From an uncultured Spirochaetaceae bacterium (GTDB lineage Bacteria > Spirochaetota > Spirochaetia > SZUA-6 > Fen-1364), in the NCBI GenBank assembly GCA_964353885.1, contig CAYGXO010000095.1, forward strand, positions 488 to 64,487: a stretch of DNA of 64,000 nucleotides, written 5' to 3'. Under the pieces are notes generated by a model. That model ran no database searches, was not told the DNA's origin, and was given only the letters and a program-made list of their open reading frames with translations. A program made the position numbers and the translations under genes. Shown piece after piece: positions 6,966 to 18,263 of the stretch (its first letter is position 1; each line of letters opens with the position of its first letter).

Positions 6966-7056
6966 GACCGGTCCAGAGGAAAAATCTCTCACGGGAAAAG
7001 CCTCCGGCGCCGTGATACATGGTAGGATCGCATCGGAGAAGGCTGTCGGAGGCCCT

Positions 7057-8172
7057 ATGAAGAAGGCATTCCCCCTCGTCGTTGTTATCGCCGTCCTCGC
7101 TTCCCTCGCGGGCTGCGACTTTCTGAAAGGGAGCGTAGACGGGTACACGGTGAGCGGGACGGTTTCGTTCAGCAGCTTCGCGCGCACGGTCGATGGAGAA
7201 CTGTACATCCAACTTTTTTCCACCGTCGATGCAAACGGCGCAGTGGCCGCGGGTATCGCACCTCAAGCCTATTCGGGCGAGCAGCAGGTTTCCTTCGCGA
7301 TTTCAGGCGTCAAGCAGGACGACTACCGCATCCAGGGATTCATCGATAGGAACGCGGACGGCATCTGGGAGGACGGGGAGCCTGTCGGCAGCTACCCGTC
7401 CGATGCGGCGGGTCAACCGGCCCTGATGAGCGTGAAGCAGGACACTGTGATGAACCTCGCGATATGGGCGAATCCTATCCCCATCACGATCGTGTACAGA
7501 ATGGGGATGGACGACGCTCTTGCGGATGCCATCGAGGCTCTGCTCGAGGGCACTCTCACAAGCGTCCCAGGGGTAGTCGGAGTCATGCCTCTGTTTGCGG
7601 TCACGAAGATCAGCGACACAGACATCCCCCCGCTCTGGGACCCCGCGTATGCGCTCGCTGGCAGGCCGATCATCATCACGTCTGGCATCGCACCTGTTCC
7701 CGATCGCTCCCGCAACATTGCGCAGGCTGGGCACGGAATCATCGTTATGGGCTCGGCAGGCGCCCTTTTTCTGGATTTTGTATCCGCGAACTGGTCCGCC
7801 TGGGGTTTTACGGGTCAAGCACCAGTCGATATCGGCTTTGTTGTCAGCATTGCCGGGAGCGCATTCGCCGTGAAAACCCGTGGAACGGCGAGCGGGGCAT
7901 GGAGCTCGCCGTTGCGATCCACCGCCGTTCCGGCCGTTGATGGGGTCATTGTCCCTTTAGCCCCCGCGGCGCTTCTCACCCATGAAGTCGTTGGAGGGGG
8001 AGTCGATCCGGTTGGAGGCACGCTCCTTGCCGAGAATACCACGATTCCGACGCGATTCCCGATCGTCCGCCAGGGCAGGTTCGTCCAGTATGGATTCCAA
8101 CAGCTCGCGGACCTCTCTGACACGGGATCAGTGCTATTCGTGAATCTCGTGAAGCTGATGAGCGCGTACTGA
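7057..8172 (+). CDS. lipoprotein of unknown function
   Basis: MKKAFPLVVVIAVLASLAGC is a signal peptide plus lipobox (LAG|C). The ATG at 7057 was verified. I recognised no family motif in the mature part. Confidence 0.7.
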   Translation: MKKAFPLVVVIAVLASLAGCDFLKGSVDGYTVSGTVSFSSFARTVDGELYIQLFSTVDANGAVAAGIAPQAYSGEQQVSFAISGVKQDDYRIQGFIDRNADGIWEDGEPVGSYPSDAAGQPALMSVKQDTVMNLAIWANPIPITIVYRMGMDDALADAIEALLEGTLTSVPGVVGVMPLFAVTKISDTDIPPLWDPAYALAGRPIIITSGIAPVPDRSRNIAQAGHGIIVMGSAGALFLDFVSANWSAWGFTGQAPVDIGFVVSIAGSAFAVKTRGTASGAWSSPLRSTAVPAVDGVIVPLAPAALLTHEVVGGGVDPVGGTLLAENTTIPTRFPIVRQGRFVQYGFQQLADLSDTGSVLFVNLVKLMSAY

Positions 8173-8243: not shown

Positions 8244-8579
8244 ATGCCCTTTTCGACGCTTTTCGAGCGTAGAGAGAAAGAGAGAGAGCTCGAGCGGCTG
8301 CGCGTGATCGAGGAGGTCAAGCGCGCCGGTGGGGCTCTTCGGGCGAGGTTCGCGTACGATGAGCTGCTGCTCTTCGGATCGCTCGTATCGGGGAAGTTCG
8401 ATCGTCATTCCGACATCGACCTGGCCGTGAAGGGACTGGCCTCGGAGCACTTTTTCAAGGCCTGTGCTTTCCTCATGCACGAGATTTCGGGGAATCACGA
8501 TCTCGACCTCAAGCCATACGAGGACCTCGACGAGAACCTGCGCCGGAGGATCGATGGGGAGGGTATCCGCATTGGATAG
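8244..8579 (+). CDS. minimal nucleotidyltransferase (MNT/MntA-like, antitoxin-type)
   Basis: 111 aa. LFGSLVSGKFDRHSDIDLAV matches the GSx(10-11)DxD motif of the Pol-beta-type NTase fold. Confidence 0.85.
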   Translation: MPFSTLFERREKERELERLRVIEEVKRAGGALRARFAYDELLLFGSLVSGKFDRHSDIDLAVKGLASEHFFKACAFLMHEISGNHDLDLKPYEDLDENLRRRIDGEGIRIG

Positions 8580-9051
8580 GGATTTGGTGCGTATCCTGGT
8601 CTCGGATATAGGGATCGAGATCGGTCATATCGACATCCTCCTTTCCGAGATCGCCATCGCGATCCGGACGAAGTCCCCGCTCGGCCGCCGGTCGATGGGA
8701 TCGATTCTCCATGATTTCTATACGTGCTGCGAGCGGATTTTCAGACGCATCGCGGTTGAAATGAACGGCGGCTTCGAAGAGACGGAGCAATGGCATAAGA
8801 CGCTCCTCTACAGGATGACCGTTCCCGTGGAGGGAGCTCGACCGCCCGTGCTCTCAGAGGAGCTGGCAGCGGAGCTCGACGAGTACCTCGCGTTCCGCCA
8901 CGTTTTCCGCAATATCTACGGATTCGAGCTGAAGGGCGAAAGGGTTATTCGGTTGTCAGAACGGCTCCCGGAAGTAGCAGGGGGGCTGAAAGACGAGATC
9001 CGCGCCTTCCGAAAGCTTCTGGAAAGAGAGCTCGACGCTTCCTCATCCTGA
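8554..9051 (+). CDS. HEPN-like (HepT-like) partner of the MNT protein
   Basis: About 165 aa and all-helical in appearance. It contains ...SILHDFYTCCERIFRRIAVEM...WHKTLLYRM...YLAFRHVFRNIYGFEL. It overlaps the MNT gene (ATG 8554 or TTG 8572). The family call comes from the motif pattern I recall and from the gene pairing, so the start and family are uncertain. Confidence 0.55.
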   Translation: MGRVSALDRDLVRILVSDIGIEIGHIDILLSEIAIAIRTKSPLGRRSMGSILHDFYTCCERIFRRIAVEMNGGFEETEQWHKTLLYRMTVPVEGARPPVLSEELAAELDEYLAFRHVFRNIYGFELKGERVIRLSERLPEVAGGLKDEIRAFRKLLERELDASSS

Positions 9052-10272
9052 TTTTCGAAGGGCCTCTTGCACCAGGCCCAGGCATTCGTCGCGGCGTTCG
9101 TCCGTCGGCTCGCTTGCCCACAGCCCGATCAGAAACTCGCGCGCCGCGTCAGGATCGGACGCCACGGGCTTTCCCGCTTCCTCGCCCATCGCGTAGGAAA
9201 CGGCGGCTGCCGCGCCTCGGGCCATGATCCTCGGCTCGATGCCCTGCTTGAGCGCCTCGCGCATCGTGCCGAAGAGCCTGTCGCCATAACCCAGCTTTCG
9301 CCGCGGGTCCCTGATGATGCGCTCCACCCTGTCGTTCAGGTAGGGGTTGGTCATCCTCTCAAGAAGATCGTCGGCGTAGGCCGCGTATCCTTTTTCCGTG
9401 AACAAGGGGTCGCCGAACCGTCCGTGCTTGCGGATGAGGGCTGCACCCGACTCCTCGGTGAACGCCCTTCTCCCCAGCGCCATGAGAGACGCCTCCTTGC
9501 GGATCTCGCTCATCACCGCGAGCCCCCGGGCATGCGCGAGGTAGCCCAGGAGGGCGTGGATCGCGTTGTGGCCGAAGAGCTTCGCCTCCTCGAAGGGCAG
9601 GAGGTCCTCTTTCTCCTCGAAGACACGGATGCCCCGGGAGAAGCCGGGCAGCGCGATCTTCGAGATGTAGATCCGATTGAACTCCTCGACGAGCACGCAC
9701 TTGTCGAAACCGGGGACGAGCGGCGAGAGGCCCAGCCTGCGCATCTCCTCCTGCGAGGAGATCACGCCGCTCATCTTGCCGACGACAGTGTTGAGGAACT
9801 GCATTCGCTGGATCCGCTCCGAGGGGGCTCGCTTCAGGACCTCCTCGCGCAGGATTTCCGCGGCGAAGTTGTTGTTCTCGGCCGTGTAGACGATCCGCTG
9901 CCTGTCGGGCGCGGCTCCCTCGGCGATGAGCGCGGCGATCGAGGAGTCCCCGCCCGCGCCGTAGAAGCTCACGCTCGGGATGGCTGTGGCGAGCTCGTCG
10001 GCTCCGCTGATCGCCTCTACGACGGACTGCCTGTCGGTCCGCGCCCGCGGGTTGCACATCCGGATCCCGTCGAGCCGAAGGGTCGCGATACCGTCACGCC
10101 GCGCGATGTTGATCGAGACCGCGTTGCCGTTGGCCCGCACCGCGTCGACCAGGCTCTGGTCGATCTCCGCGATCGTGTATTCATCGAAATTGCCCGATGC
10201 CATGGCCTCGCAGAGCATGAGGCCGGTCTGGATCGGGCCGAAGCCGAAGCCGACGAACGCCTTCCTGTGCAT
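9043..10272 (-). CDS. mannitol dehydrogenase family oxidoreductase (sugar or sugar-phosphate dehydrogenase)
   Basis: About 409 aa from the verified ATG at 10272. It has an N-terminal Rossmann-like FVGFGFGPIQTGL. FEEAKLFGHNAIHALLGYLA matches the K-L-F-x-x-N-x-x-H catalytic segment of MtlD-type enzymes. Confidence 0.65.
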   Translation of the reverse strand: MHRKAFVGFGFGPIQTGLMLCEAMASGNFDEYTIAEIDQSLVDAVRANGNAVSINIARRDGIATLRLDGIRMCNPRARTDRQSVVEAISGADELATAIPSVSFYGAGGDSSIAALIAEGAAPDRQRIVYTAENNNFAAEILREEVLKRAPSERIQRMQFLNTVVGKMSGVISSQEEMRRLGLSPLVPGFDKCVLVEEFNRIYISKIALPGFSRGIRVFEEKEDLLPFEEAKLFGHNAIHALLGYLAHARGLAVMSEIRKEASLMALGRRAFTEESGAALIRKHGRFGDPLFTEKGYAAYADDLLERMTNPYLNDRVERIIRDPRRKLGYGDRLFGTMREALKQGIEPRIMARGAAAAVSYAMGEEAGKPVASDPDAAREFLIGLWASEPTDERRDECLGLVQEALRKSG

Positions 10273-10352
10273 CTCTCTCCCTTCCCGCACGGGGAGTGAC
10301 CGTATCACGGACTCCTCCCCGTGGAAAGGGCCGTCTCATGGCTGCCGCGGCG

Positions 10353-10934
10353 CTACCTCCGCCCCAACCAGACCCCTGTCGACAGCGTGACCTGGAAGCT
10401 CCCCAGAGGGTAGTTGATGAAGTCCGTCACCGGCGGCGGAGTCATGAAGGGAGTCCATGTGAGCTTCGCCCCGAACTGGAAATTGGCGAGGTTGACATTG
10501 AGCCCGCCGGTCAGCATGGGAAAGATGGAGATGTAGAGGTTGCCGTCGGCAGGGCCGGTCCAGTGGTCGAGGAGGACGCGGCCCGCACTTCCCAGCCCCG
10601 CCTGGAAGAAAGGATCGATGAAAGCCGCGGCGCCGAAGGGGTGGAAGCTCAGGTAGAAGGCCTGGCCGTACCAGTCCAGCCACCACTGCGGGGAGGGATC
10701 CCGGACGAAGTTGGCGAGATAGGTGCCGCCGATGCCGATCTTCCTTATGACGACTTCCCATCCCCCGCCCCAGAAGAAGGGCTGATCGGGGCTGGAGAAG
10801 GTCTTGATGATCTCCTGCGCCGTGGGGCTTTTAAGGAAATCCGCCGCGACGGTTCCCGTCAGATACACGGCCGTGCCCGCGAAGCACGCGGAACCGAGAG
10901 CGGCGAAGATGAGCACGAATAGGACTGATTTCAT
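10353..10934 (-). CDS. exported hypothetical protein, possible small outer-membrane beta-barrel
   Basis: 193 aa from the verified ATG at 10934. Signal peptide MKSVLFVLIFAALGSACFAG. The mature part is rich in aromatic and Gly residues (FFWGGGWEVV, WWLDWYGQAFYLSF). It is divergent from the ECF sigma gene. Confidence 0.6.
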   Translation of the reverse strand: MKSVLFVLIFAALGSACFAGTAVYLTGTVAADFLKSPTAQEIIKTFSSPDQPFFWGGGWEVVIRKIGIGGTYLANFVRDPSPQWWLDWYGQAFYLSFHPFGAAAFIDPFFQAGLGSAGRVLLDHWTGPADGNLYISIFPMLTGGLNVNLANFQFGAKLTWTPFMTPPPVTDFINYPLGSFQVTLSTGVWLGRR

Positions 10935-11016
10935 GGCTGGCCTCCTGTTGTCTGCTCGTTCAGCTGCACGCCCAATGGAACACCAGGAGAGGAGGGGAGG
11001 GTCACCGTGAGCGGCG

Positions 11017-11550
11017 GTGACATCTCGGCGCCGCATGCGTGTTATACTCTTTGATGAGTGGGAGAAGCCCGTGGCAGTTGACGTTGACGCCCTGTATCGG
11101 AAATACGGCCCGATGGTCCTTCGCAGATGCCGCTCGCTTCTCGGCGACGAGGAGGAGGCTCTCGACGCGATGCAGGACACTTTTGTGAAGGTGCTGCGCT
11201 ACCGCGAGCGGCTGACGGACGAGGCGCCGTCCAGCCTCCTCTACTGCATGGCGACGAACGTCTGCCTGAACGCGATGCGCTCGGAGCGCAGGCGGCCGCG
11301 TCCCAGCGGCGACGAAGTCCTTCAGACCATAGCCTCCGCCGAGGACGTGGAATCCCTCGCCCTCGCGCGGCACGCGATCGAAGGCATTTTCTCCGGGGAG
11401 CGCGCCTCGACCCGGACCATGGCGGTTCTCCACTACGTCGACGGCATGACCCTGGAGGAGGTCGCGCGGACGGCCGGCCTCTCGGTGTCCGGGGTCCGAA
11501 AGCGCCTGCGCACACTGAGGACGCGCACACGGGCGTTGGAGGTGGTATGA
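11017..11550 (+). CDS. ECF-type RNA polymerase sigma factor
   Basis: Region 2 is EEALDAMQDTFVKVLRY and region 4 is VLHYVDGMTLEEVARTAGLSVSGVRKRLRTLR. The start is uncertain: GTG 11017, ATG 11035 or GTG 11071, all in frame. Confidence 0.88.
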   Translation: MTSRRRMRVILFDEWEKPVAVDVDALYRKYGPMVLRRCRSLLGDEEEALDAMQDTFVKVLRYRERLTDEAPSSLLYCMATNVCLNAMRSERRRPRPSGDEVLQTIASAEDVESLALARHAIEGIFSGERASTRTMAVLHYVDGMTLEEVARTAGLSVSGVRKRLRTLRTRTRALEVV

Positions 11551-12362
11551 TGCGGCAGCCAGAAAGAATACCCGACCTTTCTCTCGAACAGTACGCCCTG
11601 GGCGAGCTCTCCCCCAAGGAGGAGGCCCGGGTGCGGGCCGAGCTCGCGCGGGATGCCGGCCTGAGGGACCGGCTCGACGCGCTGCGGGAGTCCGATCGCC
11701 AGATCCTCGCCGCCCACCCTGTCGCGACCATGGCCGCGGAGATCCGTGGAAAGCTTCGCGCCGAGGCATCCGCTCCTCAAGAGCGGGCGATCCGCCGTTT
11801 TCCCCCCCTCGTCTTCGCGCTGCCGATTGCGGCGTCGATCGTCCTCTTCCTCTCGTTCCTCGTGGCTCGGGAAAGGATTCTTCCTTCTTACGCTTCCACT
11901 GGGGCGGAGGTGACGCGGCTGAAGGGCGTGAAGACCCACCTCACCGTGTATCGCAAGGCGGCCGACGGCGCCGAGGAGATCGGCGACGGCGAGACCGCCA
12001 TGCCGAGGGACGTGCTGCAGATCAGCTACACGGCCGCGGAGGCGAAGTACGGCGTCATCCTGTCCGTGGACGGCCGCGGGACAATCACCTGGCACCTTCC
12101 GGGCCGATACGCGGGCGCGGCGCTGACAGCTCCCTCTCTCAGCACGCAGGGGGAGGTCATCCTCCCGTCAGCCTACGAGCTGGACGACGCTCCCAGCTTC
12201 GAACGGTTCCTCCTCGTGTACTCTGCCGCGCCCTTCGACGTGCGGACGGTCGAGCAGGCGGCCCAGGCTCTGGCCTCGCGGCCGAAGACGGCCGCGAGCG
12301 GCTCCCTCGCGCTCCCACCGGCAATGAAACAGTTCTCTGTCGTCTTGAAGAAACAGGGGTGA
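11547..12362 (+). CDS. membrane anti-sigma factor with a DUF4384-like extracytoplasmic domain
   Basis: 271 aa with an ATGA overlap on the sigma stop. The N-terminus is LSLEQYALGELSPKEEARVRAEL. There is one TM helix (FPPLVFALPIAASIVLFLSFLVA). The C-terminal domain is VYRKAADGAEEIGDGETAMPRDVLQISYTAAEAKYGVILSVDGRGTITWHLP...FERFLLVYSAAPF. Confidence 0.75.
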   Translation: MMRQPERIPDLSLEQYALGELSPKEEARVRAELARDAGLRDRLDALRESDRQILAAHPVATMAAEIRGKLRAEASAPQERAIRRFPPLVFALPIAASIVLFLSFLVARERILPSYASTGAEVTRLKGVKTHLTVYRKAADGAEEIGDGETAMPRDVLQISYTAAEAKYGVILSVDGRGTITWHLPGRYAGAALTAPSLSTQGEVILPSAYELDDAPSFERFLLVYSAAPFDVRTVEQAAQALASRPKTAASGSLALPPAMKQFSVVLKKQG

Positions 12363-12366
12363 AGCC

Positions 12367-14595
12367 ATGAAGGCACAACGTGTTCCCGTCGTCTTCCTCG
12401 CGGTTTTCTCCGCGATTTTCCTCGTCGCAGCCTCCGGGTGGGCAGAGAAGCCGGCCGCGGATCTCGTGCCGCTGCGCCGCTTCGCGCTGATCGCCGGCTC
12501 CAATGACGGCGGGCAGGGGCGCACCAGGCTGAAGTACGCGGACTCCGACGCCAAAGCCTTTGCCGCGGTGCTGAAGGAGCTCGGCGGCGTGCGCGCGGAA
12601 GACATGCTCCTGCTGGTCAATCCCGACCTGGCGCAGTTCAGGGGAGCGATCGGCCGTATGCAGCAGCTGGTGAAGGCTCCCTGGGAGATCGAGGAGCGGC
12701 GCGAGCTCATCGTGTACTACTCGGGCCACTCCGACGAGGAAGGCCTGATCCTCGGGTCCGAGCGCTTCCCGTACGACACCTTCAGGAAGGAGGTCACCGA
12801 CATTCCCGCGCAGGTGCGGGTGGCGATCCTCGACTCCTGCTCCTCGGGCGCCCTCACACGGACAAAGGGAGGGGTTGCGCGCCCCGCGTTCCTCTTCGAC
12901 GCCTCCACGGACATGAAGGGTCACGCCTTCCTCACATCGAGCTCCGCCGAGGAGGCCGCGCAGGAGTCGGACAGGATCGGCGCCTCCTTTTTCACGCACT
13001 TCCTCATCTCGGGCTTGCGCGGCGCAGCCGACAGCACCGGCGACGGGCTGGTGACCCTCAACGAGGCGTATGCCTTCGCCTTCCAGGAGACCCTTGCCTC
13101 GACCGAGCGCACGCAGTACGGGGCCCAGCATCCGGCCTACGACATCAGCCTGACCGGGTCCGGCGACCTCGTTCTCACCGACCTGCGGGCCGCCTCTGCC
13201 GGTCTCACGATCCCCGAGGGTGTGCGGGGCAGGCTCTCCATCCGCGACGAGCGCGGAGCCCTTGCCGTGGAGTTGGCCAAGACCGAAGGCCAGAGGGTGG
13301 ATCTCGGCCTGGCTCCAGGATCCTACTCCGTCCTGCTCGACGACAAGGGCAGCCGATACGGAGCCGAGGTGCGGGTGGTCTCGGGCAGAAGGACGACGCT
13401 CGCTCCCTCGTCGCTGCGGCCTGTCCCTGGAGATCGAACGGTCGCCCGGGGCGACGGCGAGGACCCCTTCGAGGCAGATTCACCCTTTGCCGAGGAGCCG
13501 CCGGTCGAAACGCCGCCGTCATTCGAGGAAGCGCCCTTGGTCGAGCCCTTCCACCTTGCGCTCCTCCCCGAGTTCTCCTTCCGCGCGAACCGCGCGGTAT
13601 CGATCAGCGCCCTCATCGGCAGCGCCGCGAATTCGACCCGGTTCGCCGCGGCGGGGATCGCGAACCTCGTCTCCAAGGACATGCGGGGGGGCCAAGCCGC
13701 GGGCGTCGGCAACATTGTGCTCGGCGACTCCTCGGGTTTCCAGGCCGCGGGTGTCGTGAACGTGACGGGAGGCGACGCGGGGTGGATGCAGTCTTCGGGC
13801 GTCGTGAGCTTCTGCGGCGGAGAGCTTCTCGGCTTCCAGGGCTCGGGCGTCGGCGGCCTCGCCCTCGGCGGCGGCCGCGGCGTCCAGGCAGCGGGCGTGT
13901 TCGCAATCGCAGGCGGTCCCTTCACGGGCATTCAGGCCTCGGGGGTCGCGAACTGGGCGCAGGGCGCCTTCCGCGGCGTCCAGGTGTCGGGCGCCGTCAA
14001 CTACGCCGAGAGGATGATCGGACCACAGATCAGCGTTGTGAACATCGCCGATACGGTCTCGGGCGCCCAGGTCGGAATTGTCAATATCGCCCGCACGGTG
14101 AAGGGCACGCAGGTCGGGATCGTGAACATCTCGAACCAGATCGACGGCATCCCGATCGGGCTCGTCACCGTCGCGCAGAACGGCAGGCAGCAGCTGGAGT
14201 ACTGGACCGACACGGACGGCTCGCAGAACCTCGGCTTCTCCCTGGGCTCCAAGCACACCTATACGCTGTTCTCGGCGGGGTGGAAGCCGGGGACCGAGCA
14301 GTGGAGCTACGGGATCGGCCTCGGCGGCAGGGTGATCATCGACAGGTTCTTCATCGACTTCGACGGCTCGGCGGTCTCCGTTCACAATGGCTTCAATGAC
14401 TGGCTCATCACGGGGCCCGGCGCCCTGGTGCCGATCGTGCGCATCATGCCGGGCTTGAAGCTCTTCGGAGACCTCGCCGTCACCGCTGGCGTCGCCCTGC
14501 GCTTCTACGTGCCGGGCGTGTCTCCCAGCCCTGACGGAACGGTTCTCACCGATGTGCGGGTGGTGCCCAGCTTCCTCGTGGGCGCTCAGATATAG
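12367..14595 (+). CDS. exported caspase-fold peptidase (C14 family) with a tandem-repeat region and C-terminal anchor-like domain
   Basis: 742 aa with a signal peptide (VVFLAVFSAIFLVAASGWA). The catalytic dyad context is intact: ELIVYYSGHS (His121, nt 12727-12729) and AILDSCSSG (Cys158, nt 12838-12840). The gene starts 4 nt after the anti-sigma stop. Confidence 0.88.
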   Translation: MKAQRVPVVFLAVFSAIFLVAASGWAEKPAADLVPLRRFALIAGSNDGGQGRTRLKYADSDAKAFAAVLKELGGVRAEDMLLLVNPDLAQFRGAIGRMQQLVKAPWEIEERRELIVYYSGHSDEEGLILGSERFPYDTFRKEVTDIPAQVRVAILDSCSSGALTRTKGGVARPAFLFDASTDMKGHAFLTSSSAEEAAQESDRIGASFFTHFLISGLRGAADSTGDGLVTLNEAYAFAFQETLASTERTQYGAQHPAYDISLTGSGDLVLTDLRAASAGLTIPEGVRGRLSIRDERGALAVELAKTEGQRVDLGLAPGSYSVLLDDKGSRYGAEVRVVSGRRTTLAPSSLRPVPGDRTVARGDGEDPFEADSPFAEEPPVETPPSFEEAPLVEPFHLALLPEFSFRANRAVSISALIGSAANSTRFAAAGIANLVSKDMRGGQAAGVGNIVLGDSSGFQAAGVVNVTGGDAGWMQSSGVVSFCGGELLGFQGSGVGGLALGGGRGVQAAGVFAIAGGPFTGIQASGVANWAQGAFRGVQVSGAVNYAERMIGPQISVVNIADTVSGAQVGIVNIARTVKGTQVGIVNISNQIDGIPIGLVTVAQNGRQQLEYWTDTDGSQNLGFSLGSKHTYTLFSAGWKPGTEQWSYGIGLGGRVIIDRFFIDFDGSAVSVHNGFNDWLITGPGALVPIVRIMPGLKLFGDLAVTAGVALRFYVPGVSPSPDGTVLTDVRVVPSFLVGAQI
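13620..14125 (+). repeat. about 12 tandem ~16-residue (48-nt) coding repeats inside the caspase gene
   Basis: Units read from the translation: FAAAGIANLVSKDMRG / GQAAGVGNIVLGDSSG / FQAAGVVNVTGGDAGW / MQSSGVVSFCGGELLG / FQGSGVGGLALGGGRG / VQAAGVFAIAGGPFTG / IQASGVANWAQGAFRG / VQVSGAVNYAERMIGP / QISVVNIADTVSGA / QVGIVNIARTVKGT / QVGIVNISNQIDGI / PIGLVTVAQNG. The consensus is xQxxGVxNxxxxxxxG. Confidence 0.8.
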
Positions 14596-15080: not shown

Positions 15081-15986
15081 CTACTTCTGCGCGATCCTGA
15101 TCCCGCCGCTCGTGGTCCGTATCTCGACAGGGATCGAGCCCTGCCCGATCCTGCCCTGGAGCCTGTTGCGCCTCTGCTCCATGATGGAGACAGGGAAGCC
15201 GCAGGAAACGGTGCCGCTCACGGAGCGCAGGTCGAGGGATGCGTCGAGGCCGGCGAAGGCATCGACCCGCACGGAACCGGACACCGATTGCATGCTGATG
15301 GATCCGCCCTTCTCGATCGCGTCGATCGCGCCCTCGATGGATCCCGAAATGGATCGCGCCTCGAGCGTTTTTCCCGCGAACACGAAGTCGATCGAGCCGC
15401 TCGTGGTCCCGGCGCGCAGGTCGCGGGAGCCGTTCGTCGTGATCGAGCCCGAAACGGTGTTCAGCCACTGGTCGACGCCGAGGCCCGCATCCCTGACGGT
15501 CACGCTCCCGCTCACCGAGCGCGCCCGCACGACTTTCACAGTTTTGGGCACCGTGACGGCGAACTCGATCGAGCCCCGCCAGCCCGCGGGGGGAGCATCG
15601 CGTTTCTCCTCGATCACGAGCCTGCTTCCCTGCTTCTGGATGTCGACCCGCAAGGCATCGAGGGACGCCCGGCTCGGAGCCCGCTTCACGGAGTGCACAT
15701 TCACGGGACCGCTCGCCGCGCCGATCACCTCGATCGAGCCTGCCACATTGCGAATCTCCACTTCGGTGAAAGCACCCTCGATCTGCTGATCGTTCTCCGC
15801 TTCCTCGCGGCCGCCGATGGGGAACTCCCCGTCGTCCCACCACCCCCGCATCTCGGGGATCGACAGGCGGAAGCTGTGCATGCGGTTCTGCGCGATGAAC
15901 ACGATGCTCCCCGCCAGCATGAGGATGACGATGACCCCGAGGGTGATCCCGAGGATGTCGATGGGGCTACGTCTTGTCCGATTCAT
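15081..15986 (-). CDS. DUF4097 (LiaG-like putative adhesin fold) membrane-anchored protein
   Basis: 301 aa with an N-terminal TM helix. It has repeated beta-strand motifs: VSGSVTV, VSGSITT, TSGSIDF, ISGSIEG, VSGSVRV, VSGTVSC, TSGGIRI. Confidence 0.8.
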   Translation of the reverse strand: MNRTRRSPIDILGITLGVIVILMLAGSIVFIAQNRMHSFRLSIPEMRGWWDDGEFPIGGREEAENDQQIEGAFTEVEIRNVAGSIEVIGAASGPVNVHSVKRAPSRASLDALRVDIQKQGSRLVIEEKRDAPPAGWRGSIEFAVTVPKTVKVVRARSVSGSVTVRDAGLGVDQWLNTVSGSITTNGSRDLRAGTTSGSIDFVFAGKTLEARSISGSIEGAIDAIEKGGSISMQSVSGSVRVDAFAGLDASLDLRSVSGTVSCGFPVSIMEQRRNRLQGRIGQGSIPVEIRTTSGGIRIAQK

Positions 15987-16248
15987 TCATCTTCTCCAGT
16001 TCCCGCTTCGCGACCCGGTCCACGAGGCTGCCGGACTGGTACAGGAATGCGGAGAGGAAGTGTGACGTGACCCCGATTCCCCAGCCCAGAGCGGGCCACA
16101 GCCACCACTGGTAGCCGCCCCCCGTCGTGTTGTTGATGATCGCGAGCGCAGCCATCACGATGAGATAGATGATGGCGTGGCGGATGAAGCCCACCTTGCG
16201 CAGGGCGATCTTCCGCGCCAGCTCGAGTTTCTCGTTGGCTTCGGCCAT
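15967..16248 (-). CDS. 2TM-domain small membrane protein
   Basis: 93 aa from the verified ATG at 16248, with RBS AAGGAGGGA. It has two adjacent TM helices (RHAIIYLIVMAALAIINN ... WWLWPALGWGIGVTSHFL). It overlaps the DUF4097 start by 20 nt. Confidence 0.75.
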   Translation of the reverse strand: MAEANEKLELARKIALRKVGFIRHAIIYLIVMAALAIINNTTGGGYQWWLWPALGWGIGVTSHFLSAFLYQSGSLVDRVAKRELEKMNESDKT

Positions 16249-16348
16249 GTATCCCTCCTTGCCGGTTGATCTCCTCCATTGAACACCGGTGCGGGGAGGG
16301 AAAGACACCGCATCAGGCCGTTGCGGCGCGGATGGGGGTTTGTCGGCC

Positions 16349-16609
16349 CTACTTCTTTTCCGGCTCGTCCTTCTTGACCACTTCGAGGGTGAAGTTGGAC
16401 GCCATGGCAGCGAGGGCGCCCACCGCCGCGAGGACGGGCGCGAGCACCGCGCCCACCACACCGAAGGTGAGAGGGATCTCCATGAACGTGTTGCCTTTGT
16501 CGTCCTTGATGATGATCTTGCGGATGCTGCCCTCGTGGATGAGATCCTTCACCTTCTTGAGCAGCTCCTCACCCTTCACCTTGAACTCGCGCGCGAGATC
16601 TTCCGGCAT
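16349..16609 (-). CDS. DUF4342 family protein
   Basis: 86 aa from the verified ATG at 16609, with RBS GAGGAGG. Sequence: MPEDLAREFKVKGEELLKKVKDLIHEGSIRKIIIKDDKGNTFMEIPLTFGVVGAVLAPVLAAVGALAA. Confidence 0.7.
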   Translation of the reverse strand: MPEDLAREFKVKGEELLKKVKDLIHEGSIRKIIIKDDKGNTFMEIPLTFGVVGAVLAPVLAAVGALAAMASNFTLEVVKKDEPEKK

Positions 16610-16757
16610 AGCGTCCTCCTCATGCGGCGATTGTCCGCGGACCACTCCAAAGGTATGTCAGCGGGCAGGGGGGAGTCAAGGAAATCACTCGCGCAAGCAG
16701 CCGCAACCGGTATATACTGCTGAGCACGGACTGCAGTCGCGACACCAGGAGGGATTC

Positions 16758-18263
16758 ATGGGTTCGGAAGGCTTTCTGCTCGGCTTCGATGTCGGCAGCT
16801 CCTCCATCAAGGCGGCTCTGCTCGACGCCCGCACGGGAAGGCTCGCGGCCTCGGCCGTGTCGCCCAAGACGGAGCTGGCCATCGAAGCCAAGCGCCCTGG
16901 CTGGGCGGAGCAGGACCCCGAAGTGTGGTGGGAGAATGTCGTTGCCGCCTGTCGGGAGATACGCGCACAGGCGGGGAGCGGCTGCGAGGCGATTTCCGCG
17001 ATCGGCATCTCCTACCAGATGCACGGCCTGGTCCTGGTTGACGGCTCGGGGAAGGTCCTGCGGCCATCGATCATCTGGTGCGACAGCAGGGCCGTCGAGA
17101 TCGGCGAGAAGGCGTTCCGCCGGATCGGAGAGCAGGCCTGCCTCTCGCGGCTGCTCAACTCGCCGGGCAATTTCACCGCATCGAAGCTGGCATGGGTGAA
17201 GGAGAACGAGCCGGAGATCTTCCGCCGGGCCGCCAAGGCAATGCTGCCGGGCGACTACATTGCGATGCGCATGACGGGCGAGGCGCGCACGACCCCCTCC
17301 GGCCTTTCTGAAGGGATCCTCTGGGACTTCTCGAAAGGCGGGATCGCTGACATCGTGCTCGACGCGTACGGCATTCCCCGAGAGCTCGTTCCCGAGACCG
17401 TCCCCACGTTCTCAGCCCAAGGAGGGCTCACCGTCGACGCTGCCTCCGCGCTCGGACTGCGCAAGGGCATCCCCATCACCTATAGGGCGGGCGATCAGCC
17501 CAACAATGCCTTCTCGCTGAACGTCCTGGATCCAGGGGAGGTGGCGACCACGGCGGGCACCTCGGGCGTGGTCTATGGCGTCTCTGGCTCGCCCCGGCAC
17601 GACCCCCAGTCGCGCGTGAACACGTTCGTGCATGTCACGCACACTCCCGCGGCGCCGCGCTACGGGGTGCTGCTCTGCGTGAACGGCACGGGCATCCTCA
17701 ACAGCTGGATCAGGGCCACCCTCATGGGGCGCGGCAGCGCCATCCCCTACGACGAGCTGAATCGCATCGCGGCGGAGGCCCCCGTCGGCTCGGATGGCCT
17801 CGCGATCCTTCCCTACGGCAATGGGGCGGAGCGGACTCTCGCGAACCGCAACCCGGGCGCAGGCATCGACGGCCTCGACTTCAACAGGCATGGGATCGCC
17901 CACGTGCTCCGAGCTGCGCAGGAAGGGATCGTCTTCGCCCTCCAGCACGGCCTGGAGATCATGAAGGGCATGGGAATAGAGGCTGCCACAGTGCGGGCGG
18001 GTTACGCGAATATGTTCCTGAGCCCTTTGTTCCGGCAGGCTTTCTCGACTGTGACCGGCGCCCGGGTCGAACTCTACAGTACGGACGGGGCGCAGGGGGC
18101 TGCCCGGGGCGCGGGCGTGGGCGCGGGGGTCTACGGGGGCGTGCGTGATGCATTTGCGGGGCTTTCGGCCGTTCAGACCGTGGAGCCGGACTCTGGGACG
18201 ATCGCCGCGTACCGCGACGCCTACGGCAGGTGGAAGGAGGCTCTCGGACGGGCGCTGGGGTAG
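16758..18263 (+). CDS. FGGY family carbohydrate kinase (xylulokinase-like)
   Basis: 501 aa from the verified ATG at 16758, with RBS AGGAGGGA. Contains GFDVGSSSIKAALLD, ISYQMHGLVLVD, GDQPNNAFS and TTAGTSGVVYG. The upstream 164 codons of the track ORF are antisense shadow. Confidence 0.88.
   Translation: MGSEGFLLGFDVGSSSIKAALLDARTGRLAASAVSPKTELAIEAKRPGWAEQDPEVWWENVVAACREIRAQAGSGCEAISAIGISYQMHGLVLVDGSGKVLRPSIIWCDSRAVEIGEKAFRRIGEQACLSRLLNSPGNFTASKLAWVKENEPEIFRRAAKAMLPGDYIAMRMTGEARTTPSGLSEGILWDFSKGGIADIVLDAYGIPRELVPETVPTFSAQGGLTVDAASALGLRKGIPITYRAGDQPNNAFSLNVLDPGEVATTAGTSGVVYGVSGSPRHDPQSRVNTFVHVTHTPAAPRYGVLLCVNGTGILNSWIRATLMGRGSAIPYDELNRIAAEAPVGSDGLAILPYGNGAERTLANRNPGAGIDGLDFNRHGIAHVLRAAQEGIVFALQHGLEIMKGMGIEAATVRAGYANMFLSPLFRQAFSTVTGARVELYSTDGAQGAARGAGVGAGVYGGVRDAFAGLSAVQTVEPDSGTIAAYRDAYGRWKEALGRALG

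Follow-up and report, generated by a model that had tools for sequence, protein, structure and literature searches.

A sigma factor, an ActD-like anti-sigma factor and an exported orthocaspase encoded as one conserved module in many bacterial phyla, with a candidate site-1 protease

The pathways governed by sigma factors of the extracytoplasmic function (ECF) type form a major class of bacterial signalling, in which the protease that receives the signal is often unknown. The general scheme, in which an ECF sigma factor is freed by the proteolysis of a single-pass anti-sigma factor, is known. The orthocaspases of bacteria are widespread, but to our knowledge hardly any substrate or physiological role has been assigned to them. 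Here, we describe a locus in which these two subjects meet. It lies in a stretch of 64,000 nucleotides (nt) from an uncultured Spirochaetaceae bacterium (assembly GCA_964353885.1, contig CAYGXO010000095.1, positions 488 to 64,487 of the forward strand), which is called the window throughout and to which all the coordinates refer unless a locus is named. Three genes encode an ECF sigma factor, an anti-sigma factor and an exported Peptidase_C14 (caspase-fold) protein, and a fourth gene, bb193, is divergent from them; the closest relatives of the window proteins are found in metagenome-assembled genomes (MAGs) of Spirochaetota. The features of the locus are the following.

10353-10934, minus strand: bb193, an exported beta-rich protein of 193 amino acids (aa), an open reading frame (ORF) divergent from the operon
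10979-11005, minus strand: ECF-type motif facing bb193, GTGACC-N15-GGTGTT, the second of the two matches in the window
11017-11043, plus strand: predicted ECF-type promoter of the operon, with the -35 box GTGACA at 11017-11022, a 15-nt spacer and the -10 box CGTGTT at 11038-11043
11060-11064, plus strand: Shine-Dalgarno-like GGGAG, with a conserved 'GAGCGGGAGAA' block before the GTG in close relatives
11071-11550, plus strand: ECF sigma factor of 159 aa, from Pfam and NCBIfam, with the start taken from the comparison of orthologues and the ORF open back to 11017
11547-12362, plus strand: anti-sigma factor of 271 aa with a single membrane pass, belonging to the ActD-like family, from NF052375, the AlphaFold2 model, family alignments and NCBI names
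11913-11927, plus strand: T123-R-L-K126-G127 at the end of the juxtamembrane linker, with K126 and G127 invariant across phyla, a candidate cleavage site
12012-12224, plus strand: sub-threshold DUF4384 stretch, residues 156-226, containing the invariant DGRG..T.H.P and AYELDDAP.FERF
12367-14595, plus strand: exported orthocaspase protein of 742 aa, from Pfam, NCBIfam, the AlphaFold2 model and Foldseek
12727-12729, plus strand: codon of the catalytic His121 (YYSGH), invariant in 40 orthologues
12838-12840, plus strand: codon of the catalytic Cys158 (DSCSSG, of metacaspase/orthocaspase type), invariant in 40 orthologues
12856-12873, plus strand: T164-R-T-K-G-G169 loop after the catalytic Cys, a candidate autoprocessing site
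14185-14592, plus strand: C-terminal 8-stranded beta-barrel module, a predicted outer-membrane anchor, from AlphaFold2 and Foldseek

The three co-directional ORFs and the divergent one are all present in the ORF list of the window, and the junctions agree with the initial annotation, which had described three genes packed head to tail: an ATGA at 11547-11550 forms the overlap of the sigma stop codon with the anti-sigma start codon, and the stop codon of the anti-sigma gene (TGA, 12360-12362) is followed 4 nt on by the ATG of the caspase gene at 12367. No sigma-70-type promoter was detected on the coding strand within the operon, and terminator-like matches within it are no commoner than expected by chance. 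The tight packing, the fact that no such promoter was seen inside the operon and the single ECF-type promoter upstream therefore argue for one functional module, and it is strongly supported that the sigma factor, the anti-sigma factor and the exported Peptidase_C14 protein belong to one conserved transcription unit.

The conservation of this arrangement was examined from both ends. Starting from the anti-sigma factor, with an alignment of 34 homologues as seed and one genome scanned per species, 393 stretches were found to encode a relative; the best 80 loci were kept, and their neighbours were scored by tblastn with the window proteins. The sigma gene is immediately upstream in 73 of these 80 loci, and a caspase domain is encoded immediately downstream in 74. 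Starting from the caspase, whose alignment was searched against metagenome contigs and whose loci were judged where at least 900 nt (for the anti-sigma gene) or at least 1500 nt (for the sigma gene) were available upstream, the anti-sigma gene is directly upstream in every case (60/60) and the sigma gene in 50 of 51. The 80 loci are distributed over at least six phyla, among them Spirochaetota, Myxococcota, Fibrobacterota, Acidobacteriota, Aminicenantes and Latescibacterota, and the Myxococcota are represented by the genera Myxococcus, Corallococcus, Archangium and Pyxidicoccus. The triad is a real module, which recurs in hundreds of bacterial species far beyond what chance would produce. Its conservation outside this genome, on which the initial annotation had made its proposal depend, is thus established by both searches, and its view of the genes as one module is upheld by the two-way synteny as well as by the tight packing and the single ECF-type promoter.

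The first gene product is recognized as a sigma factor by both Pfam (Sigma70_r2, 5e-15, 55.4 bits against a cut-off of 24; Sigma70_ECF, 24.1 bits against 21.1; Sigma70 r4_2, 24.1 bits, slightly under the cut-off of 25.7) and NCBIfam (TIGR02937 ECF, 63.5 bits against 42.9), and on these matches it is assigned to the ECF (group 4) sigma-70 factors; no subfamily or equivalog cut-off of NCBIfam is reached. It is only distantly related to the structurally studied ECF sigma factors, the nearest solved relatives being SigL and SigE of Mycobacterium tuberculosis, at only about 30 bits. A look-up of the exact sequence, with either start codon, gave no match, and the main text of the ECF reclassification paper (Casas-Pastor 2021) makes no mention of a caspase-associated group. 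The initial annotation had correctly recognized an ECF sigma factor and had placed it at 11017-11550, a start that now appears too early: the start codon common to the orthologues aligns with the GTG at 11071, GGGAG precedes it, and in many orthologues an in-frame stop lies less than 10 codons upstream of the conserved start, so that the gene most likely extends from 11071 to 11550 and is translated from the second of the two GTG codons. The GTG at 11017 coincides instead with the first base of the conserved -35 box.

This box is part of a motif, GT(G/A)(A/T)C(A/C)-N15-(C/G/T)GTGTT, that is common to the regions upstream of the orthologous sigma genes, where it is usually located about 50-60 nt before the sigma start codon, across phyla. 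It is present in 62 of the 80 loci, almost always once and at the equivalent position, and in loci devoid of a sigma gene it is found directly upstream of the anti-sigma gene. In the whole window, GTRWCM-N15-BGTGTT has 2 matches, compared with 0.04 expected, and both fall in the divergent intergenic region. Given the ECF motif upstream and no internal sigma-70-type promoter, the operon has the appearance of being autoregulated, and dependence of the caspase on the sigma factor is, at the least, predicted. One of the two roles that the initial annotation had offered for the protease, that of an output controlled by the sigma factor, is in this way at least predicted, since the caspase gene would be co-transcribed from a promoter that bears the marks of autoregulation.

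The small exported gene noted earlier on the opposite strand (10353-10934) is also real in the sense that it is conserved, adjacent to the operon, in Spirochaetota loci and has the motif facing it, and its product, bb193, has no match in Pfam or NCBIfam. Minus-strand sites equivalent to that at 10979-11005 occur in related loci, and the motif, with one mismatch at most, is found within 160 nt upstream of 33 of 42 bb193 homologues, including copies that have moved to a position downstream of the caspase gene, against 37 of 2000 random windows. Because the same motif faces it, bb193 is predicted to belong to the regulon of the sigma factor in Spirochaetota. The possibility that bb193 is a relative of the C-terminal barrel of the caspase protein was considered and discarded (hhalign probability 3.5%). 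Extra copies of the motif were observed in four other places, L054 4261-4929 (-), L075 9271-9891 (+), L008 9849-10919 (+) and L037 10634-11214 (+), and the genes behind them encode MotA/ExbB/TolQ-family proteins, one HlyD-type membrane-fusion/adaptor protein and one caspase-less protein, without a Pfam match, whose N-terminal part resembles by eye the middle beta-sandwich of the caspase protein. These copies hint at lineage-specific envelope regulons.

Such a pattern of regulation would suit a caspase that is an output and nothing else, namely a sigma-induced, outer-membrane-tethered periplasmic protease acting on other envelope proteins, which it would degrade or process for quality control or remodelling, comparable to DegP in the sigma-E regulon; the anti-sigma factor would then sense the cue through its own beta-sandwich and would be removed by some other protease. 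This explanation draws on the location of the caspase gene under the sigma factor's own predicted promoter, seemingly autoregulated, and on the fact that the further predicted members of the regulon (bb193, the exbB/tolQ-like and the HlyD-like genes) encode envelope proteins. The two-way linkage described above, however, is near-absolute (60/60 in the search seeded with the caspase) and tighter than is usual for a mere regulon member. Taking into account also the evidence presented below, we consider it somewhat unlikely that the caspase is an output only.

The single-pass anti-sigma factor proposed for the second gene is consistent with its AlphaFold2 model (predicted local distance difference test, pLDDT, 86), which has a helical bundle, one transmembrane helix and a C-terminal beta-sandwich. 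In particular, a cytoplasmic helical domain (residues 1-78), with a four-helix N-terminal bundle at residues 10-75 (pLDDT >90), is followed by the transmembrane helix (about 86-107, or 91-111 in the model), by a flexible linker (about 108-122, with residues 112-123 disordered in the model) and by a periplasmic beta-sandwich with one helix (residues 128-271, or 131-269 in the model). Residues 1-78 are the putative sigma-binding domain. The N-terminus matches NF052375 'antisigma' at 3e-10 and 40 bits, below the cut-off of 100, and the orthologues carry the names 'ActD-like protein' and 'anti-sigma factor RsiW' at NCBI. The Cys/His motif HxxxCxxC of the zinc-binding anti-sigma (ZAS) domains is not present in residues 1-80, and zf-HC2 gives only a weak match (best E 0.016) in 7 of 34 family members. 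A Foldseek search with the model retrieved generic immunoglobulin-like sandwiches only, with no specific PDB match and no DUF4384 structure, and a PDB sequence search with the anti-sigma profile gave no match.

The periplasmic domain had been described as DUF4384-like, which is partly sustained. DUF4384 (PF14326) is the only recurrent Pfam family of the C-domain, being detected in 23/34 and 13/37 family members, but always below the gathering threshold: for the window protein the score is 16.0 bits (E 0.013), where 27 bits would be needed, the best E among 71 family members is 5e-5 with an alignment spanning model positions 7-78 of 81, and the gathering score is reached by none of the members; the proteins that NCBI names 'DUF4384 domain-containing' score 17.8-19.9 bits. 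It is plausible that the C-domain is a remote relative of DUF4384 and not a member of it. Its own profile recovers 3585 clusters at 50% identity, 884 of them at E <= 1e-30; the best 150 of the 3585 matches are all orthologues, mostly of about 230-330 aa with few shorter fragments, the domain is C-terminal in all of them, and true DUF4384 proteins are not among the matches listed. The C-domain was also considered as a paralogue of the middle beta-sandwich of the caspase protein, and this was rejected (hhalign probability 0.3%). According to the literature, DUF4384 is indeed found together with orthocaspases and with proteases of other kinds; the occurrence of DUF4384-like domains beside caspases elsewhere, and within the protease substrate Csx30, tells against a caspase that is merely an output.

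The third gene encodes, as initially annotated, a signal-peptide-bearing Peptidase C14 protein of 742 aa with a His121/Cys158 dyad. Its N-terminal half comprises the signal peptide (1-26, or 1-24 in the model), the Peptidase_C14 domain (34-262) and a beta-sandwich (268-345, or 269-344 in the model), and its C-terminal half a disordered linker (356-390), an LA_2272 beta-solenoid (392-603) and an 8-stranded barrel (607-742). Peptidase_C14 (PF00656) is matched at residues 37-260 above its cut-off (36.8 bits against 21.4), the LA_2272 repeats (NF047436) are matched in two stretches at 49.3 bits against 25, and a PDB sequence search with the caspase profile found no match. H121 and C158 are invariant in the 40 orthologues (42-92% identity), together with many of the surrounding loop residues, and the His-Cys dyad is also found in the caspase of the act locus of Myxococcus stipitatus, discussed below; the sequence has, moreover, the metacaspase-type DSC.SG motif and a Q-E-S-D motif. 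In the AlphaFold2 model (pLDDT 78.5, and >90 across most of residues 410-670) residues 36-247 adopt the caspase fold, with low-confidence loops at 159-201 (pLDDT <50) and 247-266, and Foldseek relates this N-terminal part to metacaspase 9, the Candida glabrata metacaspase and caspases 3/6/7 with a probability of about 1 and E of about 1e-2.

The best NCBIfam match of the caspase domain is 'caspase, EACC1-associated type' (NF047832, 1.7e-17), and couplings of caspases with ECF sigma factors do exist in defence contexts, two facts that would fit a system of conflict or programmed cell death similar to the EACC/caspase or Craspase systems, with the caspase serving as a suicide or immune effector and the sigma factor coupled to it. 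The EACC1-type match is, however, far below its cut-off (63.6 against 140 bits), and a PADLOC search gave no match for any of the four proteins (sigma factor, anti-sigma factor, caspase and bb193). In addition, the caspase protein is predicted by the models to be exported and membrane-anchored, the module is found in many phyla and in ordinary chromosomal contexts, as beside dnaN in Myxococcaceae, and genes for cas proteins, for the cyclic-oligonucleotide-based antiphage signalling system (CBASS) or for nucleoside triphosphatases (NTPases) do not adjoin it in the window. On account of the PADLOC result, the exported architecture and the ordinary contexts across many phyla, a role in defence or cell death appears very improbable.

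The strands of the C-terminal barrel (607-741) are modelled at a pLDDT of about 90, with turns of 2-3 residues on one side and loops of 4-16 residues on the other. The Foldseek matches of this eight-strand part are NspA, OmpA-TM, Opa60, PagL and OmpW, with a best E of only 2.4e-3; the weak E-values obtained with this protein (2e-3 to 1e-2) are no surprise with a multidomain query. It is apparently this barrel that anchors the caspase protein in the outer membrane. The short turns and long loops and the even number of strands, if the usual topology of outer-membrane proteins applies, would locate the caspase domain, together with the solenoid and a linker of about 35 residues, in the periplasm, within possible reach of the beta-sandwich of the anti-sigma factor.

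By tblastn the anti-sigma factor of the window is 42% identical to ActD of Pyxidicoccus fallax (locus L067) over residues 8-269 (E 3e-42), and by sequence it qualifies as a full-length homologue of the ActD / ActD-like family, whose myxobacterial members are named 'ActD protein' or 'ActD-like protein' at NCBI and often occur both in one genome. Close orthologues in Spirochaetota likewise bear the name 'ActD-like protein' at NCBI. In M. stipitatus, the act locus has the order Glrx-like, GGDEF (ActA), sigma-54 activator (ActB), GNAT (at the position of ActC), ActD, Peptidase_C14 (762 aa) and TPR. The same gene order is found in L067 and L074, and the act context in L067, L074 and L161. L074 (BNCN01000010.1, 'Comamonas sp. 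KCTC 72670'), which has the act gene order, encodes proteins that share 57-67% identity with their Pyxidicoccus or Myxococcus counterparts, and the record is probably that of a myxobacterium labelled Comamonas; 'one Comamonas species' is the sole non-myxobacterial match in the paper on the anti-sigma factor DdvA (PMC11506125).

The other M. stipitatus locus is adjacent to dnaN and consists of an ECF sigma factor, an ActD-like protein and a protein of 193 aa made up only of a signal peptide and the barrel module. Each of the two loci has the ECF motif once, upstream of the sigma gene in the one and between actC and actD in the other; as the actD-caspase pair has the motif before it without being linked to the sigma gene, the caspase is tied to this sigma factor even though their genes are separated. 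The resemblance to the window is divided between the two loci: actD is followed by the 762-aa Peptidase_C14 gene, with the same architecture and the same ECF motif upstream, and the ActD-like paralogue sits behind an ECF sigma gene, as in the window, where, unlike in the act operon, the gene is sigma-linked and no GGDEF, sigma-54 activator or GNAT gene lies upstream. Four Archangium loci (L029, L034, L066 and L073) and the act-type loci L067, L074 and L161 likewise have an anti-sigma/caspase pair with no adjacent sigma gene and the motif directly upstream, so that these pairs must depend on a sigma factor from another locus. In myxobacteria the caspase travels with the anti-sigma paralogue ActD and not with the sigma factor, which is a further argument against a purely downstream role.

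In five Myxococcus loci (L051, L058, L060, L076 and L162), the gene that follows the anti-sigma gene encodes a signal peptide and a barrel only, and this protein is 44% identical to residues 634-785 of one Archangium caspase protein; the caspase, the beta-sandwich and the solenoid have been deleted from these sigma-linked loci. That the sigma and anti-sigma genes remain intact where the caspase domain has been lost, and that the invariant motifs of the anti-sigma C-domain are kept in these lineages, is in line with the caspase being an output only.

The survival of the barrel is, in turn, what would be expected if the third protein were a co-sensor or tether. In such a case the barrel, the solenoid or the beta-sandwich would bind the periplasmic domain of the anti-sigma factor and report the state of the outer membrane or the periplasmic spacing, in the manner of FecA with FecR and of RseB with RseA, and the caspase would act chiefly on its own protein, by autoprocessing or release, and not on the anti-sigma factor. 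Besides the barrel module being the part kept beside the anti-sigma gene after the loss of the caspase, the solenoid and linker could, in the model, span the periplasm, autoprocessing is suggested by the R-x-K-G-G loop, invariant and flexible, that follows the catalytic Cys, and the distances of the anti-sigma C-domain correlate slightly better, albeit weakly, with those of the barrel and of the middle domain than with those of the catalytic domain. The barrel is, however, the least conserved part (mean pairwise distance 0.68, compared with 0.39 for the caspase domain, which is conserved almost to the degree of the sigma factor, at 0.35). The mirror-tree comparison covered seven domains in 40 complete loci and gave correlations of about 0.83-0.92 throughout; the differences are within noise, partial correlations single out no partner for the anti-sigma C-domain, and the binding is putative. 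We regard a co-sensor or tether as improbable.

The explanation that we prefer assigns to the caspase the cleavage of the anti-sigma factor, of which a motif is the one direct hint. An R-x-K-G / K-G core is shared by the anti-sigma linker and by the loop after the catalytic Cys of the caspase, both of which are flexible segments. In the anti-sigma factor, residues 112-123 have a pLDDT <50 and residues 121-130 an average of 64; in the caspase, L-T-R-x-K-G-G lies 6-11 residues after Cys158, in a low-confidence loop where T164, R165, K167, G168 and G169 are invariant. The intersubunit processing of caspases occurs in the region just after the catalytic Cys. Metacaspases and orthocaspases of the DSC.SG type cut after Arg or Lys (PMC6426788). 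The shared R-x-K-G, the position of the loop after the Cys and the Arg/Lys specificity of the DSC.SG enzymes together suggest that the caspase may process itself and then cut the anti-sigma factor near the membrane, and the occurrence of R-x-K-G in both proteins speaks against the caspase as an output only.

In the circuit that can be envisaged, an envelope cue would activate the caspase, perhaps via autoprocessing in the R165-x-K167-G168 loop, and the caspase would cut the juxtamembrane linker of the anti-sigma factor at K126-G127 (R-x-K-G) as the site-1 cleavage. A site-2 protease of the RseP type and cytoplasmic proteases would then clear the remaining anti-sigma factor, and the freed sigma factor would transcribe bb193 as well as its own operon, the latter a positive feedback by which the anti-sigma factor and the caspase are renewed too; envelope genes might also be driven by it in other lineages, such as the exbB/tolQ-like and HlyD-like ones. 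The support that we count for this model consists of the two-way synteny, the great size of the C-domain family, the invariance of the dyad and of the loop, the promoter motif, also before the unlinked pair of M. stipitatus, the modelled periplasmic reach, the R-x-K-G / K-G core in both proteins and the precedents of DdvA and Csx29. A role of the caspase as site-1 protease, in a circuit that is autoregulated and spans both membranes, is in our judgement a serious possibility, short of probable; the more precise proposal, that an outer-membrane-tethered orthocaspase is a dedicated site-1 protease cutting an ActD-type anti-sigma factor at the invariant R-x-K-G linker site, is put forward tentatively and with more doubt.

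Several observations weigh against cleavage of the anti-sigma factor by the caspase. The shared motif is short and was noticed post hoc, and ActD of M. stipitatus has G-I-K-G, so that only K-G is strictly invariant. Several Myxococcus species have an intact sigma and anti-sigma factor with the caspase domain lost from the downstream gene, and two Archangium MAGs have no caspase gene at all; the loss of the caspase beside an intact sigma/anti-sigma pair means that a cis-encoded caspase is not indispensable, even if, despite this loss, a paralogous actD-caspase pair is present elsewhere in the genome of at least M. stipitatus. A caveat on the mechanism comes also from the Archangium and Pyxidicoccus loci that lack a sigma gene. 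The link to DUF4384 is sub-threshold, and so, therefore, is the domain-fusion argument for a caspase partner. Foldseek gives the barrel weak E-values (2e-3), and the orientation towards the periplasm is itself deduced. Specific co-evolution is not apparent, as the partial r of the anti-sigma C-domain is 0.36 with the catalytic domain and 0.46 with the barrel. The link between the caspase and the anti-sigma factor is a plausible hypothesis drawn from sequences and models.

The initial annotation had stated that no characterised ECF pathway is built around an orthocaspase. This has to be qualified, as Csx29-Csx30, DdvA and the predicted EACC2 systems are precedents, and it stands in so far as neither Craspase nor DdvA nor EACC2 uses a separate exported Peptidase_C14 protein. 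In Myxococcus xanthus, the periplasmic CHAT domain of the anti-sigma factor DdvA has been proposed as its own site-1 protease, cutting the flexible juxtamembrane linker ahead of RseP (PMC11506125). The window resembles this system in its ECF sigma factor, its predicted single-pass anti-sigma factor and a caspase-fold module, predicted to be periplasmic, with a His-Cys dyad. The differences concern the protease, which in DdvA is a CHAT and not a Peptidase_C14 domain, fused to the anti-sigma factor and acting in trans within a dimer, and is here a separate protein with a predicted outer-membrane anchor; the periplasmic part, TPR-CHAT in DdvA and a beta-sandwich of about 145 residues here; and the cytoplasmic part, a zinc-binding anti-sigma domain in DdvA and one without HxxxCxxC here. 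DdvS, moreover, controls a defence island of CBASS and clustered regularly interspaced short palindromic repeats (CRISPR), whereas the regulon predicted here consists of the operon and envelope proteins.

In Craspase, the CHAT protease Csx29 cleaves Csx30, a binder of the ECF sigma factor RpoE whose C-terminal domain is in some cases DUF4384 (bioRxiv 10.1101/2022.08.17.504292). There, a caspase-fold protease cuts a sigma-binding regulator at the linker between its sigma-binding N-domain and its C-domain, as would be the case in our model; Craspase, however, is cytoplasmic, RNA-guided and encoded in a type III-E CRISPR locus, with a protease of the CHAT type (TPR-CHAT), whereas the window module has no cas genes and no PADLOC matches and its proteins are exported or membrane-bound. 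EACC2-caspase systems with ECF sigma factors (PMC8195603) and ECF54 with CHAT/subtilase neighbours (PMC8999054) have been predicted in silico, and in them, as in the window, a gene for a caspase-fold peptidase is coupled in the genome to one for an ECF sigma factor. ECF54 differs in having no membrane anti-sigma factor, and the EACC2 systems in their composition (EACC2, variable sensor domains and a DUF1822 TPR protein); the window caspase, far below the EACC1-type cut-off, also has another architecture.

Among the classical pathways, sigma-E/RseA/DegS/RseP and FecI/FecR/FecA are similar to the predicted module in that an ECF sigma factor encoded in an autoregulated operon is held by a single-pass anti-sigma factor, a periplasmic site-1 cut near the membrane is expected and an outer-membrane component takes part in sensing. 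In contrast to sigma-E, with the serine protease DegS in the inner membrane and the soluble Prc, the module has as its candidate for site-1 cleavage an operon-encoded cysteine protease of caspase fold with a predicted outer-membrane tether, and in contrast to Fec the partner is an 8-stranded barrel with a solenoid and not a TonB-dependent transducer. We found no paper on the triad of sigma factor, anti-sigma factor and Peptidase_C14 protein. What is distinct in it is an orthocaspase of the Peptidase_C14 type that is a separate protein and whose solenoid and barrel apparently anchor it to the outer membrane, a small DUF4384-like sensor domain as its partner, and membership of a very large, multi-phylum and uncharacterised family.

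The module thus couples an orthocaspase to an ECF pathway with near-absolute synteny, in hundreds of species of at least six phyla, and the promoter motif, the predicted regulon and a specific candidate cleavage site make the hypothesis directly testable. If the caspase is the site-1 protease, the anti-sigma factor would be the first defined physiological substrate of bacterial orthocaspases outside defence systems; if it is only an output, the module would represent a new and large ECF group, with a regulon centred on an outer-membrane-anchored cysteine protease. The gene actD of the Myxococcus act operon, long known and mechanistically unexplained, is now connected with an anti-sigma/caspase system under an ECF promoter. 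Mutants of actC and actD are reported to shift timing. The actABCD operon controls the level and the timing of C-signal production (Gronewold and Kaiser 2001, cited in PMC4320627 and PMC4877007), and the cleavage of ActD by the protein of the adjacent caspase gene would offer a molecular account of how the two genes tune developmental timing in Myxococcus. We found no paper that treats ActD as an anti-sigma factor or links it to a caspase.

The neighbourhood of the module in the window deserves a brief description. The genes flanking it on either side are concerned with sugar metabolism and have no evident operon link to it: 9043-10308 (-) encodes a mannitol dehydrogenase C-terminal domain, and 16266-18263 (+) an FGGY carbohydrate kinase whose true start is well within the listed ORF. 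Further upstream, a 386-aa ORF at 7012-8172 (+), exported or lipoprotein-like and with no Pfam match at E <= 0.1, is followed by a Polbeta/NTP_transf_2 nucleotidyltransferase (8244-8579 (+), 5.9e-9) and a HepT-like_2 protein (8464-9051 (+), 5.8e-33); these last two are likely a toxin-antitoxin pair of the MNT/HepT type, and the true start of the HepT-like_2 ORF is probably later than 8464. On the other side, a hairpin resembling an intrinsic terminator is located at 15056-15030 (-), and convergent with the caspase gene is a cluster at 15081-16645 (-), in which 15081-15986 encodes a DUF4097 'toastrack' protein, 15967-16461 a protein with a 2TM domain and 16349-16645 a DUF4342 protein, and which may be a second envelope- or membrane-associated trio.

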